Shown: positions 47,568-54,737 of the stretch, piece by piece
How the letters are laid out: each line of letters opens with the position of its first letter
Numbering within the stretch: the first letter of the stretch is position 1
DNA from: Pseudomonadota bacterium
Lineage (GTDB): Bacteria; Desulfobacterota; Desulfobacteria; Desulfobacterales; RPRI01
Direction: 5' to 3'
Length of the DNA stretch: 64,000 nt
NCBI GenBank assembly: GCA_043825875.1
Contig: JBDRRF010000067.1
Location: 32,001-96,000 of the forward strand
Position numbers and translations under genes: made by a program
Notes under the pieces: generated by a model
The model's input: only the letters and a program-made list of their open reading frames with translations
Database searches by the model: none
Told to the model about the DNA's origin: nothing

Positions 47568-48997
47568 GAAGCCGACAGTTTCTCTTTCAATATTCTGTTT
47601 ACTATTTCAGGATTTGCTTTTCCTTTTGTTTCCCTCATAATTTTTCCCACAAAAAATCCAAGTACTTTTGTTTTGCCACCTTTGTATTCCGCAACCTCTT
47701 TAGGGCTTGATGCTATTAATTTTACCACAATTTCTTCAAGCAAAGTTTCATCCGTAACCTGGACAAGGTCTTTTTCTTTTATTATTTCTTCAGGCGTTTT
47801 TCCGGTTTTTGCCATTTCATCAAAAACAGTTTTTGCTATCTTGCCGCTTATTATTTTTTGGTCGATAAGCTTTAACATTTGTGCAAGGTTTGAAGGTGAT
47901 ACGGGGGATTCTTCTATGGTTTTATTTTCGGCGTTAAGAAGCCCTAAAAGAGAACCCATTATCCAGTTGCTTACCTGTTTCGGATTATTAAATTCATTTG
48001 TGCAGGCTTCGAAATACCCGGCGAGTTCAATAGCACCGGTTAAAACATCAGCATCGTATTCAGGAAGCCCGTATTGAGCAATAAAGCGTTCTTTCTTTTC
48101 ATCAGGAAGCTCAGGAAGCTTTTTCTTCAACTCCTCAACCCAGGCGTCATCTATTGAAAGAGGAAGAAGATCGGGATCGGGGAAATATCTGTAATCATGC
48201 GCATCTTCCTTGCCTCTCATGGATATAGTGTTGTTTTTTTCAGGATCCCAAAGCCTTGTCTCCTGAATAACCTCTTCTCCGTCAAACAAAACATCTTTTT
48301 GTCTTTCAATTTCATATAAAATTGCTTTTTCAACATTTTTAAATGAGTTTAAATTCTTAAGCTCTGTTCTTGTTCCGAAAGGCTGGCTGCCTACAGGACG
48401 TATGGAAATGTTCGCATCGCATCTGAAGCTGCCTTCTTCCATGTTTCCATCGCAGATATCAAGATATCTTAATATTGATCTTATCTTTCTTAAGTAAGCA
48501 CCCGCTTCTTCAGATGAGCGTATGTCCGGCTCACTCACTATTTCAATAAGGGGAACACCCGTTCTGTTGAAATCTACCATAGAATAAGGGCGGTCAGGAT
48601 CATGTATAAGTTTGCCGGCATCTTCTTCCATATGAATTCTTGTAATACCGATTCTTTTTTTTGAGCCACTAACATCAATATCGATATAACCATGTTCACA
48701 AATTGGAAGCTCATACTGAGAAATCTGGTATCCTTTGGGAAGATCAGGATAAAAATAATTCTTTCGCGCAAACCCGTTGGTTTTTGAAATTTTACAGTTT
48801 GTCGCTATTCCCATGAGCATAGCATATTCAACGACTTTTTTATTCAGTACCGGAAGAACGCCCGGCATGCCAAGGCATACAGGACAAGTATGGGTATTGG
48901 GCGGTGCTCCGAAAGAAGTAGGGCACGAGCAAAATATTTTTGTTTTGGTTTTCAACTGGGCATGAACTTCAAGCCCGATTACGGCTTCAAACTCCAT
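47564..48997 (-). CDS. gatB: Asp/Glu-tRNA amidotransferase subunit B
   Basis: [27 protein letters not shown] and [10 protein letters not shown] motifs. Confidence 0.98.
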
Positions 48998-49233
48998 TAA
49001 TTAAATTCCTTATTTTATTACCTGTTGTTACAGATTAGATGTGGTTCTCAGTATTATAGTGCAAATATAAAGATGCGTTATGATAGTGTCAAGCTATAAG
49101 GCTATAAGCTATGTGGCTTTTTACCTTTTTCACGGCAATTTTGCAGAGTATGTACGATTTTTCAGGCTTGATTTTAAGCACCCGTGGTTTAAAGAATAAA
49201 AAGGTGTGCCAAACATAATCGGGCAGTTTGGCC

Positions 49234-49497
49234 TTATGCAACATGCAAATTTAAATTCAGCGCGTCACATACTTTTATGTAAGTTACGATATTGCAGTTA
49301 GCTCCGTTCTCGATCTTAGAAAGTTGCTGCTGTGTAACTTGCGCTTTTTTTGCAAGTTGTATTTGTGATAATCCCGCCTTTTCCCTTGCCTCGGCAATCT
49401 TAATTGCAAGCTCGATCTGTTTTTTTTCTTTTTCAAAGGCTGCCTTAAATTTCGGGTCATTCATTTTTTCATTAAGTTTTCCTCTAAATGTTTTCAT
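49234..49497 (-). CDS. XRE-family HTH protein (HigA-like antitoxin), orphan
   Basis: DPKFKAAFE...AREKAGLSQIQLAKKAQVTQQQLSKIENG. Confidence 0.85.
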   Translation of the reverse strand: MKTFRGKLNEKMNDPKFKAAFEKEKKQIELAIKIAEAREKAGLSQIQLAKKAQVTQQQLSKIENGANCNIVTYIKVCDALNLNLHVA

Positions 49498-49888
49498 TAT
49501 ATATCCACTATGAATTACTTGTGAGCATGTGGCAAATCAAAGAAAAAGCTCTTTCAGTTTTTCCGTGTTTCCCTTCAATTCATCCGGTTTGCCCAACAGC
49601 TAAAAATGTTCAGCCAACTTTAACTAAATCTTCCAATAATGCTCACCCCTCATGTTCGGTCCTTTATGTTCAACTTTCTGCCAATCATAAAAATATATAG
49701 CAATTTGATAGTGCTAAATCACTACTGGGTTTATCATTCCAAACTTACCCATAAAGTAACCGCCAATTGGCCTTTTTATTATGCTTTATTACATCAGCGC
49801 CCCATTGCTTAAAAAAGAATAAAACACCTATCATTTTACCCGTTGTTTCAACCTCAATATATCATAAATCTGGCTATAAAGCCTTACA

Positions 49889-50054
49889 TGAGATCATTGA
49901 AAAATAGCCCCTCTCGCTCGATTTCAGTGTAAGGCTTAAATCTCGCACGGAGTGAAGCTTTAGCGCTATCCTTGAAATACTCAATATATTCCTGCGGCTG
50001 AAATTATCACCTTCCTTGAACTTGAGAAAAATTGAAAATTTTTAAGAGGTCTCA
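49889..50054 (+). mobile_element. Diverged MITE-like element, copy 3
   Basis: ATCCTTGAAATACTCAATATATTCCTGCGGCTGAAATT...CCTTGAACTTGA aligns with the core of copy 1. Imperfect TIRs TGAGATC/GGTCTCA and a ~20-bp insert. Confidence 0.6.
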
Positions 50055-50070
50055 ATTTTTTCTCTTTTAG

Positions 50071-50610
50071 TTATTTTATCCAGTTTTCAAATTCAATTTC
50101 AATATCTCCACCAGAGATTTCATGAATTGGTGACATTGCATCATCCGTCACAAGTATCAGGTTGTATGCCAATGCAACGGCCGTTATCCAAAGATCATTC
50201 TCCTGTATCTGAAGTTCTTTTGAAGTAGTTGGATCTTTCCATTCTTCAATGCGTTTTTTTCCGGCTGACTGACCTTTTTTTCGCCTTGGCGCATATTTAT
50301 CATAAAGCTTTGCCCGGAGTAGAGAATAATGTTGTCGGGCGATATCGCAATCAATAGTCAGGCAAGGATATCTTGTCAGAATACCAGCCAGTTGTTTGTA
50401 TTTTTCTTTATGCGGATCAGCAAATGGTCCCACTCTGATACCGTATTCTACTTCTCCGGCTGTGACAGGCGAAAGAAGTATTCTGGCGTTTTTCGGCAAC
50501 GATTCAAGCTTCTCTCTTAACTGAATGCATTCACTGCTTTGACTGCCTGCTTCCAGTTCATGAATATATCGAATAATATTGGTGTCAAGCAAATAGTCTT
50601 TCTGTTTCAT
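50071..50610 (-). CDS. PIN-domain (VapC-like) ribonuclease with a basic insertion
   Basis: LLDTNII, GEVEYG, ENDLWI and LVTDD acidic motifs. ATG 50610 overlaps the upstream TGA (ATGA). Confidence 0.88.
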   Translation of the reverse strand: MKQKDYLLDTNIIRYIHELEAGSQSSECIQLREKLESLPKNARILLSPVTAGEVEYGIRVGPFADPHKEKYKQLAGILTRYPCLTIDCDIARQHYSLLRAKLYDKYAPRRKKGQSAGKKRIEEWKDPTTSKELQIQENDLWITAVALAYNLILVTDDAMSPIHEISGGDIEIEFENWIK

Positions 50611-53141
50611 GGGATTTCCTGCCAAATCTCTTTTATATCCTTAAGCAACTCTTCGTCTGGTTGCTTTTGAATATTTTTCAGAATTTTTTCAGGTGTTGCC
50701 TCCTTATACTGATCCGAAATAAAAATGTGTAAGGGAATCCATGAAGCGTTTTCCGGGGGGATATAGCCCTTGAATTCAAAAGGTACTTTTCTTCGAGTAT
50801 CGCCCCAAAATAAATCGAGCAACTGTCTTTCCAGTTTTGGAGGCAGGTTGTATAGCTTTAGTATCTCCGCATCAATATGGAAAAGAAGTTCCTTTGCAGC
50901 TTCAGGGTCTGTATATTGAGTTGCTATATATTTGTTCACCAAAGATTGAATGAATAAATCAGCTTTTTCAAAATTTAGTGGAACAGGTATGGAGCTATAA
51001 ACTCTTGCAGAGATGTTCCGTTGGAAACTATGGGCGTAAACAAATGCTTGTGCAATAGGTGAATTTAGCAGAGCTGCCAGTAATTCTACATTTATAGTTT
51101 TTTGAGTTGGCCAAATTACGTAAAACATACGGCTGACAATACGGCCAGTATTGTCAGTTGCAGCAGCATATCGCCATGGGCCTCTCGAAGTACGCGCTGT
51201 CGGCACAAGTACTTTAGGAAGATCCCAGTCCAAATCCCAGGCGCCTATCGCCCGTTTTCTTCTCAATTTTTCATTCGTATCTAAATAAACAATATCCTCT
51301 GCCACAAATGTTCTAAAACCTTCGCTTACTTCGTAAATTCCCGGTCTTGATTCTGGAAAGGGTTTTGCCTGAATCACTTCATGACGTCTGTTTTTAATAA
51401 TACCTGATTCATATTCAACTCCCTTTTTTATATCTATATATTTTTCGAGTTTAGGCAACACACCCAGATAACTCCATACTTCCCTTAACACAGGAACAAT
51501 CAGCCTGTTTTGCTGATTTTCTGAGAAATAGATTTGCGGGACTTTGTCTTCCCATGTGGCTTCTGCATTCAAACGAAACCTTTCTTTGTGATGATCTTTT
51601 ACTTCCCGATAGGTTGTCAGATTACCCTTTTTTGCTTTACGCTTCCTGGCCACAAGTATAGCTGTTTCAGCTTCAGAATGAAGAAATATTTTATCAGGAA
51701 GAGCGGCTAAGGTTAGTATTTCAAAATCTTTAAGCAAAATGGATCGTTCGTTTCGATAATCTTTCCCGTCAAGAAAAGACCGCGGTAAAACCATGCCGAT
51801 CATACCTGCCTGAGATATTGCAGGAAGAGCTCTTTTTAAAAGATATGCCGGTTTTGGCTGCTCCTTACCATTTACAATAAGTTTCTCAAAAGGCGGGTTG
51901 CCGATAAGAATTGTTGTTTCGGAAGTATTTTGTTCAAGAATCTTTCCTGAAAAAATATCCGCACGTTGCAAGTCCCAGCTGTTGGATTCCGGGAAATCGG
52001 CCAGCATCAAACACATTCGTGCAACTTCAATGGAAAAAGCATCAATCTCTATACCGTGCAGTTTATCAACAAAGAATTGATGACGCTTTTTGCCGCTCCA
52101 GTTCGCCGGCAGCAGTTCCCGCATACGCCTCATGGCTGCAATCAAAAATATTCCGTGCCCGCATGTTGGGTCCAGAAAATTCCATTCGTTTCTCGGCAAT
52201 TCTTCAATTGGAAGCTGAGAGACAACATACTCCGCCACATATGACGGCGTGCTGTGAATTCCCATCTCTTTCCGGCTTTTTTCGGTGACAAAAGTATTTT
52301 CATATATGTATGTGAGAGTATCCACCGATATGTTTTTTAATGAAAAGATCCCACCAATTTCATCTGACATACAGCTTAATATGTCTTTAGGTATGTTTTT
52401 TATTAAAGGTTTTTCAGAGCTTCCGTAATATCCTGAAACAATTTTCAATATTTGATCCGGGGATTTGAAATCGATATCGTTTGACTGTGGGATTGAGCTG
52501 TCTTTTATCAACTTTGCGGTAAGAAACCGAAATAATACCTGGAATATTTTTTGTGCATCAAATTTTATTTTATCTTTTAGATGCGCCTGTTCAACAACGT
52601 AAAGAATTCCTTTGATAACTCCATCCAGTTTTCTTGATGCTTCCGTCTCAAGTGCGGGCATTAATCCAATATCAACAAAATCAAGTTGTCTTGGTCCAGG
52701 TTTTTTGAAACCGGTTTTTGCACGAATCATCACTTCCGGTTCCCAAATCTCTTTTTTGCTTTTAATGAAATTTGGAAGCTGATCTGTTTTAATTTCATCT
52801 TCCGGAATTAATCGCTGCCCAGTGTTACGCCAGGTTCGTGTGATTCCATTTTGTATGATAAAGATGACAGGTGAACCAAAAGCTCGAAATTCATTTATCG
52901 AATCTTCATGAATGTCATCGCGCTTACGGAAATCAACGCCAAAGCAGGCAGAACGATAGTTCAGAGGTTCCTGCCCGAATACGCCAAGCTTAATATGACG
53001 GGTAAAGGCTGCTTTTTCAAAAAAATCGGCAAATTCATAATCAGACCGAATTAGGTGATTTTTATAACCGATTTCTTTGAAAGCCGCTATTATTGGGCTT
53101 AAGTCTGTTGTGATATCTCCTGTATGCTGGATATTAATCAT
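50607..53141 (-). CDS. N6-adenine DNA methyltransferase, type IIG/Eco57I-like architecture (844 aa)
   Basis: GIHSTP (motif X), LDPTCGHGIFL (I), GIEID and IGNPPF (IV); C-terminal TRD-like region (LAALLNS, EIL.LY.L). Confidence 0.88.
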   Translation of the reverse strand: MINIQHTGDITTDLSPIIAAFKEIGYKNHLIRSDYEFADFFEKAAFTRHIKLGVFGQEPLNYRSACFGVDFRKRDDIHEDSINEFRAFGSPVIFIIQNGITRTWRNTGQRLIPEDEIKTDQLPNFIKSKKEIWEPEVMIRAKTGFKKPGPRQLDFVDIGLMPALETEASRKLDGVIKGILYVVEQAHLKDKIKFDAQKIFQVLFRFLTAKLIKDSSIPQSNDIDFKSPDQILKIVSGYYGSSEKPLIKNIPKDILSCMSDEIGGIFSLKNISVDTLTYIYENTFVTEKSRKEMGIHSTPSYVAEYVVSQLPIEELPRNEWNFLDPTCGHGIFLIAAMRRMRELLPANWSGKKRHQFFVDKLHGIEIDAFSIEVARMCLMLADFPESNSWDLQRADIFSGKILEQNTSETTILIGNPPFEKLIVNGKEQPKPAYLLKRALPAISQAGMIGMVLPRSFLDGKDYRNERSILLKDFEILTLAALPDKIFLHSEAETAILVARKRKAKKGNLTTYREVKDHHKERFRLNAEATWEDKVPQIYFSENQQNRLIVPVLREVWSYLGVLPKLEKYIDIKKGVEYESGIIKNRRHEVIQAKPFPESRPGIYEVSEGFRTFVAEDIVYLDTNEKLRRKRAIGAWDLDWDLPKVLVPTARTSRGPWRYAAATDNTGRIVSRMFYVIWPTQKTINVELLAALLNSPIAQAFVYAHSFQRNISARVYSSIPVPLNFEKADLFIQSLVNKYIATQYTDPEAAKELLFHIDAEILKLYNLPPKLERQLLDLFWGDTRRKVPFEFKGYIPPENASWIPLHIFISDQYKEATPEKILKNIQKQPDEELLKDIKEIWQEIP

Positions 53142-53481
53142 TATGTAGAATTAGCCAATAGTTTGATTTGTTAGAAACCTGTAACGGTATAGATATTGAT
53201 GCCTTATTCTATTAAGTCGGTATCATATATTATACAAAAAGATCAATTAAAACTATCTGAAATTTCATATAAAGATACTAAAATCAGTTCTTACAAAAAA
53301 TATACTGCTCATGATAGGTGTGCGGTATAACAAATAAATATAAAAAAGAAAAGACTATATAAGCTTTTGTGGGTGGCTTTTCTTTTATTATTATTTTATT
53401 TTGACAAAATTTTAAGATAATGTGTAACTTCTTTAAAAATATCTGTTACAAAAATTTGAAAAACATGGGGCTGGAGTAAAA

Positions 53482-53667
53482 ATGAAGTATTTTCTTTGTG
53501 TTATCGGGATGGTTATGGTTATTGAAGGGCTTCCGTATTTTGCGTTCCCCGAAAAAATGAAAAAATGGGTTATTAAAATTGTTGAAATGAATGAAAGCTC
53601 TTTAAGGTGGATGGGTTTGTTTTTCATGCTTATCGGTTGCCTGCTTGTTTTTATCGGGAGACAATAG
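53482..53667 (+). CDS. DUF2065 (YjeT-like) small membrane protein
   Basis: GMVMVIEGLPYFAFP...LRWMG. Confidence 0.85.
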   Translation: MKYFLCVIGMVMVIEGLPYFAFPEKMKKWVIKIVEMNESSLRWMGLFFMLIGCLLVFIGRQ

Positions 53668-53669
53668 GC

Positions 53670-54737
53670 GTGTTTTTGTTATCCGATTATGATTACGAAC
53701 TTAGCGAAGAAAATATTGCCCAAAAGCCGGTATCTTGCAGAGATGCGTCCAGGCTTTTGGTTCTTGACAAAAAAACCGGGGCCACTTCTCACCATAACTT
53801 TTTTGAAATATGCGATTTTATTACACCTGAAGATATCATTGTAATAAATAATACAAAGGTAATACCGGGCAGGTTATTCGGGGAAAAAGAAACCGGAGGC
53901 AAAGCTGAAATTCTTATTCTGGATTTTGCAGGCGGAATCACAGAGCAAAAAGAATCCGGGAGTTTTACTTGCGAGTGTCTTGTAAAAACCTCCAAACCTC
54001 CGAAAAAAGGATCATTGATTTTATTCGCAGATAACCTTAAGGCAAAAGTGGTTAATGAAATAAAAAACGGAATTTGCCTGCTAAATTTTTCATCTTCCGA
54101 AAGTTTTGAAGATGTGCTTGGTCAAATCGGTCATATGCCGCTTCCGCCGTATATCAGGCGTGATAAAGACGGCACCCGATTATCCGATGATAAAATTTCA
54201 TATCAGACCGTATATGCCTCAAATAAAGGAGCTGTAGCAGCTCCCACCGCAGGACTTCATTTTACAAAAGACCTTCTTGATAAAATTAAATCAAAAGGCA
54301 TCAAAACAGCGGAAATAACTCTTCATGTGGGTTACGGCACATTTCTTCCTGTAAGGGTAAACGATATCAGGGAGCATAAAATGCATTCCGAGAGATTTCA
54401 TATTCCGCAAGATGCAGCTGATGCAATTAATAAGGTAAGAGAAGAAGGCGGTAAAGTAATCGCTGTTGGAACGACAAGCATCAGAACTCTGGAATATTTC
54501 TGCGATAATAAAGGAAGGGTTAAGGCTGGAAGCGGCCAATGCGATCTTTTTATATATCCGGGATACAGTTTTAAAATTGTTGATTCAATAATTACAAATT
54601 TTCATCTGCCGCGCTCCACCCTTCTAATGCTTGTATCAGCTTTTGCCGGCAGGGAAAAAATTCTTGCTGCTTACAGGGAAGCTGTGCAAAAAGGGTACAG
54701 ATTTTATAGCTACGGAGATGCAATGTTCATTAAATAG
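53670..54737 (+). CDS. queA: S-adenosylmethionine:tRNA ribosyltransferase-isomerase
   Basis: DYDYEL...IAQKP, PLPPYI, AAPTAGLHFT, TNFHLP and YSYGDAM motifs; GTG start at 53670. Confidence 0.97.
   Translation: MFLLSDYDYELSEENIAQKPVSCRDASRLLVLDKKTGATSHHNFFEICDFITPEDIIVINNTKVIPGRLFGEKETGGKAEILILDFAGGITEQKESGSFTCECLVKTSKPPKKGSLILFADNLKAKVVNEIKNGICLLNFSSSESFEDVLGQIGHMPLPPYIRRDKDGTRLSDDKISYQTVYASNKGAVAAPTAGLHFTKDLLDKIKSKGIKTAEITLHVGYGTFLPVRVNDIREHKMHSERFHIPQDAADAINKVREEGGKVIAVGTTSIRTLEYFCDNKGRVKAGSGQCDLFIYPGYSFKIVDSIITNFHLPRSTLLMLVSAFAGREKILAAYREAVQKGYRFYSYGDAMFIK

Follow-up and report, generated by a model that had tools for sequence, protein, structure and literature searches.

A methyltransferase-PIN gene pair from a Desulfobacterales genome, apparently an unnamed two-gene system with a predicted antitoxin at the methyltransferase C-terminus

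The stretch of DNA analysed here, hereafter called the window, comprises 64,000 nucleotides of a Pseudomonadota bacterium (GTDB: Desulfobacterota, Desulfobacterales; assembly GCA_043825875.1, contig JBDRRF010000067.1, positions 32,001 to 96,000), and coordinates are those of the window. Two overlapping genes on its reverse strand, encoding a Type IIG-like N6-adenine DNA methyltransferase (MTase) and a putative PIN-domain ribonuclease (RNase), form a real, conserved and apparently unnamed two-gene system, tentatively of the guard or decoy kind, with an unusual modular design in which a predicted antitoxin is fused to the MTase. The genes and the parts of the MTase are as follows.

50607..53141, reverse strand: Type IIG-like N6-adenine MTase, 844 amino acids (aa), open reading frame (ORF) with Pfam N6_Mtase match, E = 1.6e-15
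52707..53108, reverse strand: N-terminal nuclease-like domain of the MTase, aa ~12-145, from ESM Atlas features and alignment with DrdV
51507..52331, reverse strand: MTase catalytic domain, aa 271-545, with motif I at 52172-52143 and NPPF at 51899-51888
50976..51506, reverse strand: target recognition domain (TRD), TaqI_C-like, aa ~546-722, TaqI_C E = 5e-5
50610..50756, reverse strand: C-terminal tail, aa 796-844, effector-specific, the predicted PIN-binding antitoxin segment
50071..50610, reverse strand: putative PIN/VapC-like RNase effector, 179 aa, ORF with Pfam PIN match, E = 2.3e-8

The stop codon of the MTase gene overlaps the start codon of the PIN gene in an ATGA at 50610-50607, as noted in the first-pass annotation, which was made from the sequence alone. 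The ORF list of the window holds no separate small antitoxin ORF between or ahead of the two genes. There are no Rfam matches in 48900-53700, no RNA holder is listed, and predicted promoters and terminators at the locus occur at chance level.

Conservation of the pair in other genomes had been proposed as a test of the prediction, and the pair was found to be conserved. The best 80 of 188 MTase relatives in GTDB were examined, six loci of which were truncated, leaving 74 that could be assessed. Directly downstream of the MTase were found 53 PIN, 10 HEPN, 5 HNH and 2 MBL genes, and no intact effector in 4 loci, so an intact coupled effector is present in 70 of 74. The 53 downstream PIN proteins belong to the same PIN clade as that of the window. 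The HNH and MBL effectors have Pfam matches, the HNH proteins being PtuB-like, and the ten HEPN proteins are those which we take to be HEPN from their motifs and weak PADLOC matches. Three of the four loci lacking an effector are decayed copies, with the PIN deleted (L012), the MBL truncated (L047) or both MTase and MBL frameshifted (L057); the fourth is L059.

The best 80 of 341 metagenomic PIN loci were examined from the other side. An MTase gene was adjacent in 68, an MTase tail was present at the contig edge in 6, and the MTase lay one PIN gene away in 3; one of the rest had only a second PIN at the edge, one was uninformative and one (L133) had only a remnant of the tail. In L133 the MTase is gone, and the remnant is in frame just upstream of an intact PIN gene. 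Both chance adjacency of MTase and PIN and an ordinary VapBC module next to an orphan MTase are ruled out by the conserved pairing in the 74 GTDB and 80 PIN loci. No consistent third gene occurs upstream of the MTase in 68 loci. A probable helix-turn-helix (HTH) regulator gene of 160-210 aa is coupled upstream of the MTase in five proteobacterial loci (L202, L203, L205, L206 and L200).

According to record titles, the GTDB relatives come from Desulfobacterota, Nitrospirota, Nitrospinota, Planctomycetota, Chloroflexota, Bacteroidota, Verrucomicrobiota, Acidobacteriota, KSB1, a candidate phyla radiation (CPR) lineage and Pseudomonadota, that is, from at least ten phyla. The system was also found on three alphaproteobacterial plasmids, on two of which it lies beside insertion sequence (IS) or Tn7-like genes, and in four more proteobacterial genomes. 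It is rare, being present in 5 of 301 planctomycete genomes and in 3 of 401 genomes in each of two proteobacterial samples (centres included). Among 7999 candidates scored, 1150 protein clusters matched at E<=1e-50, and a C-terminal profile matched 648 representatives (50 % identity) at E<=0.001, many of them fragments. No MTase relatives were found in viral contigs or annotated phages, and an orphan MTase of phage origin is ruled out for these two collections.

The MTase consists, in order, of a nuclease-like N-terminal domain, a helical region, an intact N6-MTase domain, a TRD and a tail of about 50 aa. Motif I is at D324-L333 and motif IV, NPPF, at 415-418. The AlphaFold2 model (pLDDT 86.5) folds like CamA, M.BseCI, BrxX, DrdV, MmeI and BpuSI (Z 20.8-25.8), and DrdV aligns to residues 4-765 with Z 21.2-21.5 and a root mean square deviation (rmsd) of 8.8-9.3 over 621-628 residues. 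NPP(F/Y) is present in 97 of the 98 MTases of the unfiltered locus set and in 356 of 357 full-length homologues, among which those with P identifiers had been pre-filtered for NPP; together with motif I and several TRD residues it is nearly invariant across homologues of about 30 % identity. The TRD and the N-domain diverge at similar rates. Exchange of the TRD was not seen among close relatives: of the 2637 pairs whose MTase identity is 70 % or more, none had a TRD identity below 40 % (a comparison with no control family), and 22 of the 6671 pairs at 60-70 % did.

Sequence searches with the N-domain gave nothing meaningful and no Pfam or PDB match, and language-model features (ESM Atlas) for residues 1-160 pointed to MmeI_N (0.91) and HSDR_N (0.86). 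The domain is conserved, its best acidic column being D39 at 80 % in the 357 sequences, and neither a conserved D..(D/E)xK set nor a Lys column above 28 % before K142 was found in the 98 and 357 homologues. It is probably a dead restriction domain. The absence of an intact restriction nuclease, claimed in the first-pass annotation, thus agrees with the lack of a conserved nuclease motif. The solitary N6-MTase described there does have motifs I and IV intact, with the refinement that its N-terminal ~145 aa resemble the nuclease domain of Type IIG/IIL enzymes; the "TRD-like tail" does contain a TRD, but its last ~50 aa are an effector-specific tail and not part of the TRD.

In the PIN protein, D9, E53, E137, D139 and D157 are invariant among 72 paired homologues, and the acidic motifs are kept as predicted. 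The nearest folds are those of Haemophilus influenzae VapC1 (Z 15.8, rmsd 2.1 over 134 residues), Rickettsia VapC2 (Z 15.6) and Shigella VapC (Z 15.2). The NCBIfam match to VapC acting on tRNA-fMet is weak (34.5 bits, cut-off 140), and the PIN has a family-specific basic insertion of about 40 aa. By analogy with the VapC family, its target may be tRNA or rRNA.

A complex of MTase residues 720-844 with the PIN, each supplied with its 72-row alignment, was predicted with an ipSAE of 0.80, compared with 0.02 for the best control; the mark applied is one that 116 of 157 solved complexes and 2 of 215 mismatched pairs attain. The runs agreed in at least 92 % of contacts, with a partner pLDDT of at least 84. 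Nearly all MTase contacts are made by residues 796-844, the others by 765-769, and the PIN residues include 10, 53-63, 136 and 138, which flank the catalytic acids, so that the tail is predicted to wrap the PIN up to the rim of its active site. The tail is very probably a toxin-binding antitoxin. Given the predicted wrapping of the PIN by residues 796-844, the "missing VapB" is most likely part of the methylase chain. The earlier statement that there is no VapB is correct for a separate gene only, since the MTase apparently supplies the antitoxin itself, as its C-terminal tail.

The tail changes with the effector. In 98 proteins read by eye, the part following the shared C-terminal helical region was a tail of 50-64 aa with PIN, a domain of 109-121 aa with HEPN, a helical tail of 65-98 aa with HNH and a domain of 89-97 aa with MBL. 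The tail class of the MTase tracks the effector class, and with every change of toxin class the last 50-170 residues are different as well. Clustering of the tails in the 357-sequence set lumped classes together because of leading residues that they share, and the class counts do not draw on it. On a FastTree phylogeny of the MTase core, built from 67 rows without L059 and some half of the PIN rows, HEPN and HNH each accounted for 3 effector changes, Xre for 2 and MBL for 1, and the total was 12, compared with a minimum of 7. In a mirror-tree comparison, PIN identity correlated no better with the tail (0.57) than with the neighbouring helices (0.58).

On plasmid LR606151.1 (L201), the MTase ends in the middle and C-terminal domains of Xre-MbcA-ParS (E 7e-4 and 1.3e-4, below the Pfam cut-off), and its gene overlaps that of a RES toxin (E 1.5e-16). 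The Xre_MbcA_ParS_C tail was found at 47.8 bits in P0457 (cut-off 24.5), Xre-type tails above the cut-off were also found in P0404 (26.3 bits) and P0401 (28.3 bits), and 21 of the 120 listed relatives of the L201 MTase carry an Xre label. A further relative, P0460, ends in DUF433 (63.9 bits), which like Xre-MbcA-ParS is an established antitoxin domain filling the tail position. A search with the HNH-type tail gave only two marginal matches.

Tails were also found on proteins other than MTases. In L162-L164 the same HEPN is preceded by non-methylase proteins of 126-216 aa that carry the HEPN-type tail at their end, and in L193 and L194 receiver-like proteins encoded between a HATPase_c gene and an MBL gene finish in the MBL-type tail. 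As far as sequences can tell, with tail and effector swapping together and tails also occurring on non-MTase proteins, the end of the MTase is a socket that takes portable modules of tail and effector, and for at least one of these modules an antitoxin-toxin pairing is already recognised. In L127, L142 and L152 the MTase has the PIN tail and a second extension of ~45 aa, and two different PIN genes come after it, so that one methylase apparently carries two toxins. A UPF0175 domain is fused to TRD and tail, without the MTase catalytic domain, in L121 (4737-6498) and L137 (403-2161), and an intact PIN gene follows.

Two gene arrangements were observed at these loci. In L162 (387-1989) and L163 (495-2221) a TIGR04255-like protein gene is followed by a stand-alone HEPN-type tail protein and HEPN, a trio which presumably resembles a chaperone-antitoxin-toxin triplet. 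A three-gene unit of HATPase_c, receiver-like and MBL genes is present in Chloroflexota (L193:498-3257, L194 and L195; 3 of 200 sampled genomes, with the MBL in two) and is possibly another sensor with the same tail-effector module.

The neighbourhood of the pair contains three further features, of which the first two are context outside the system.

49890..50053, no strand assigned: degenerate copy of a miniature inverted-repeat transposable element (MITE), 164 bp, downstream of the PIN gene
49234..49497, reverse strand: orphan Xre/HTH_3 gene, Pfam HTH_3 E = 2.6e-13
53482-53667: DUF2065 gene, between the MTase gene and queA

The MITE and the orphan HTH gene beside the pair were both recognised correctly in the first pass. 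The MITE family has 149 blastn matches in its own genome, copies of ~160 bp share terminal inverted repeats, and many copies are present in same-genus genomes; its folding was no better than that of shuffled sequences (z -0.86). No intact toxin ORF lies ahead of the HTH_3 gene and a decayed one could not be shown there; the gene has a copy of 85 % identity elsewhere in G210. The gap between gatB and queA, described earlier as accessory, is indeed variable in relatives, with the DUF2065 gene as an addition to that description. It is a hotspot, nearly empty in some of 16 same-genus genomes, only one of which (G205, on a short contig without flanks) has the MTase-PIN pair. In G202, G015 and G208 it holds what we take, from its motifs, to be a Phd-VapC-like pair. 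In the closest relative, G206 (L176:1245-7099), it holds MzaE-like, MzaD-like, HNH-like, DrmMII-like C5-MTase and PDC-S05-like genes. The MzaE and MzaD genes of G206 form a partial Mza-like cluster.

In the mechanism proposed here, translational coupling would let MTase and PIN assemble as a matched complex that keeps the PIN silent, and the body of the MTase would serve as a bait or guard resembling an ordinary methylating restriction-modification (RM) enzyme. An anti-restriction factor of a phage or plasmid would jam, distort or destabilise the MTase, and the tail would let go of the PIN; candidate triggers are a DNA mimic, another RM-binding protein and possibly loss of S-adenosylmethionine (SAM). 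The freed VapC-like RNase would then cut tRNA or rRNA and the infected cell would be arrested. We place the whole mechanism, that is, a two-gene toxin-antitoxin (TA)-type defence system with its antitoxin fused to an RM-like sensor and triggered by anti-restriction, at about an even chance. The original idea that the MTase guards the PIN fits this mechanism, the predicted complex making it plausible that the MTase holds the PIN, with the PIN now one of several interchangeable effectors. The bait or guard role is favoured because there is no TRD exchange among close relatives, because L121 and L137 lack the catalytic domain and still have TRD, tail and PIN, and because of the precedent of Ronin, described below; the Mza/DrmMII-like genes or Phd-VapC-like pair in the gatB-queA gap of relatives were also counted in its favour. 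The family probably consists of anti-phage suicide switches.

Several observations weigh against this reading. The score of the complex may owe to the likeness of the PIN to solved VapBC structures (Z 15.8 to VapC1). A pure decoy would have no need of the catalytic motif, yet this is nearly invariant. The window-type PIN tail has no Pfam or PDB match and was not found as a stand-alone antitoxin in 301 genomes, whose five carriers all have it on frames of 753-899 aa, and for the HNH- and MBL-type tails no counterpart was found among known antitoxin families. The Xre-RES pairing is seen in gene context at one locus only (L201), where Xre is below the Pfam cut-off, and the DUF433 tail is that of one protein without gene context. 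A clear defence neighbour (E<=1e-20) was present at only 5 of 37 long loci (L005, L007, L011, L014 and L074), in a scan of 134 of 138 picked ORFs, some of them probably spurious picks, with no control set. At L014 (1-12626) the MTase-HEPN pair follows Type I hsdM-hsdS after a gap of 19 bp, with a CBASS-type phospholipase gene downstream; a Shedu gene neighbours the system in L200, and a Type IIG-like gene does so in L201.

Instead of sensing anti-restriction factors, the MTase could mark host sites, and unmethylated sites on incoming DNA would free or activate the effector, perhaps through oligomerisation by the dead nuclease domain, so that toxin release takes the place of restriction, and methylation-based discrimination of self from non-self leads to abortive infection rather than DNA cleavage. 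The near invariance of NPP(F/Y), motif I and several TRD residues, the retention of a nuclease-like domain despite its lost catalytic residues and the full-length structural match to the Type IIG enzyme DrdV speak for such a switch, and the evidence from the tails applies to it equally. A site-based defence would be expected to exchange its specificity, however, which was not seen (0 of 2637 close pairs, with no control family), L121 and L137 retain TRD, tail and PIN without a catalytic domain, and newly replicated, unmethylated host sites would put the cell at risk of suicide; this explanation, the main rival, is on balance less likely than not. Infection need not be sensed at all if a solitary MTase repeatedly captured TA modules through antitoxin fusion and acts as an addiction module, post-segregational killing serving to stabilise the gene or the mobile element that bears it. 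This would agree with the patchy occurrence (1 of 16 same-genus genomes), the three plasmids, two of them with IS or Tn7-like genes beside the system, the plain Phd-VapC-like pair in the same gatB-queA gap of three relatives and the weak defence-island signal. It leaves unexplained why many phyla retain a scaffold of 790 aa with a dead nuclease domain, accompanied by a toxin in 70 of 74 loci, and why the effectors are of defence type (PtuB-like HNH, MBL, HEPN), and is considered unlikely.

The tail might also be an adaptor rather than an inhibitor, bringing the effector to MTase-bound DNA as a substitute nuclease subunit, a role for which we see little probability. RES is no nuclease, Xre/MbcA/ParS with RES is a recognised antitoxin-toxin pairing, and the predicted tail touches the rim of the PIN active site, all of which count against an adaptor, even though some effectors are of DNase type (HNH, MBL). 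In the two-gene PIN system DS-5, defence needs the partner protein, which does not serve as an antitoxin (PMC13092281), and this supports an adaptor. The anti-restriction mechanism is preferred among these. A broader version of the fused-antitoxin idea is offered tentatively, as possible but short of an even chance: a Type IIG lineage may have traded DNA cleavage for a universal antitoxin socket, its still-active methylase reading methylation state, SAM or anti-restriction proteins; the socket would release whichever toxin is plugged in (PIN, HEPN, HNH, MBL or RES), and sensors as unrelated as MTase, HATPase plus receiver-like and TIGR04255-like proteins would share portable cassettes of tail and effector. 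If true, this would be a natural, re-wirable "restriction-to-abortion" switch.

A match to a named system had been set as a further test of novelty, and none was found in PADLOC or NCBIfam, which gave only generic methylase matches, far below system cut-offs where these are set, with no PADLOC match for the PIN. No description of the MTase-tail/toxin architecture was found in the literature search, most subscription journals, supplements, REBASE and DefenseFinder being outside it, nor is the architecture described in the accessible parts of 10.1101/2023.04.06.535777, PMC12839542, PMC13092281, PMC12707154 and PMC3710099. The system would define a widespread, unnamed defence family and a direct evolutionary route from RM to abortive infection. 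The swap rule would give several unannotated small domains candidate antitoxin functions, and detection of anti-restriction factors or of methylation loss by bacteria becomes testable, cultured alphaproteobacterial carriers being available. Such a methylase, able to take plug-in toxins, might also be engineered into a sensor.

The closest parallel is Ronin, whose HsdMS, lacking HsdR, keeps a toxin in check until ArdA or Aop1 is present, the components being Type I HsdM and HsdS, the 61-aa membrane toxin RonA and an essential non-coding region (10.1101/2023.04.06.535777). Death in Ronin is set off by Ocr, ArdA or Aop1 and does not depend on MTase catalysis. Both have an RM-like methylase without a working nuclease and a tightly linked toxin; toxin suppression and death triggered by anti-restriction were demonstrated for Ronin and would apply here by analogy. 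Unlike Ronin, with separate hsdM and hsdS and no hsdR, the window has a single Type IIG-like chain of 844 aa with a built-in TRD, a dead nuclease-like domain and a predicted dedicated C-terminal antitoxin segment, without a consistent third gene in 68 loci, and the effectors are PIN, HEPN, HNH, MBL or RES enzymes, that of the window being a 179-aa PIN and not RonA. PrrC/EcoprrI likewise has an RNase that an RM-type complex keeps inactive until phage attack sets it free (PMC3710099, PMC12707154), which is what is proposed here. PrrC is an ABC-ATPase-HEPN anticodon nuclease guarded by a complete, restricting Type IC system, whereas here there is no ATPase, no HsdR and an exchangeable effector; the window gap has neither ATPase nor hsd genes, unlike PrrC/RloC loci, and one relative (L014) follows hsdM-hsdS. 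According to PMC3710099, the HEPN domains associated with RM systems are found fused to nucleases, helicases and ATPases and not to methylases.

The order of nuclease-like domain, helical region, MTase and TRD is shared with the Type IIG/IIL enzymes DrdV, BpuSI and MmeI and with the orphan CamA (Z 20.8-25.8), and the single chain of nuclease, gamma-class MTase and TRD that characterises Type IIG is present, but there is no conserved nuclease catalytic set, and a swappable tail and a coupled toxin gene are added. H. influenzae VapBC1 and Shigella VapBC resemble the system in the PIN fold (Z 15-16), the acidic tetrad D9, E53, D139 and D157, the upstream, overlapping antitoxin gene and the peptide predicted to wrap the toxin. 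Unlike VapBC, there is no separate DNA-binding VapB, the predicted toxin-binding segment ends an enzyme of 844 aa, and the PIN has its basic insertion of ~40 aa; an MTase or its tail, not a separate antitoxin, is directly upstream in 74 of 80 PIN loci (68 adjacent, 6 at the contig edge). In CapRel and toxin-antitoxin-chaperone (TAC) systems the antitoxin is controlled by a sensor of a phage protein, and the HEPN-type tail behind a TIGR04255-like protein is similar; the proposed sensor here, in contrast, is a DNA methyltransferase, and one scaffold takes several unrelated antitoxin-toxin modules. As a two-gene unit with scores of about 40 bits for PglX and MAD2 (cut-offs 400-720), the system is distinct from BREX, MADS and DISARM. 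On the best reading, it works like Ronin and PrrC, yet stands outside both of these as well as outside canonical Type IIG and canonical VapBC.

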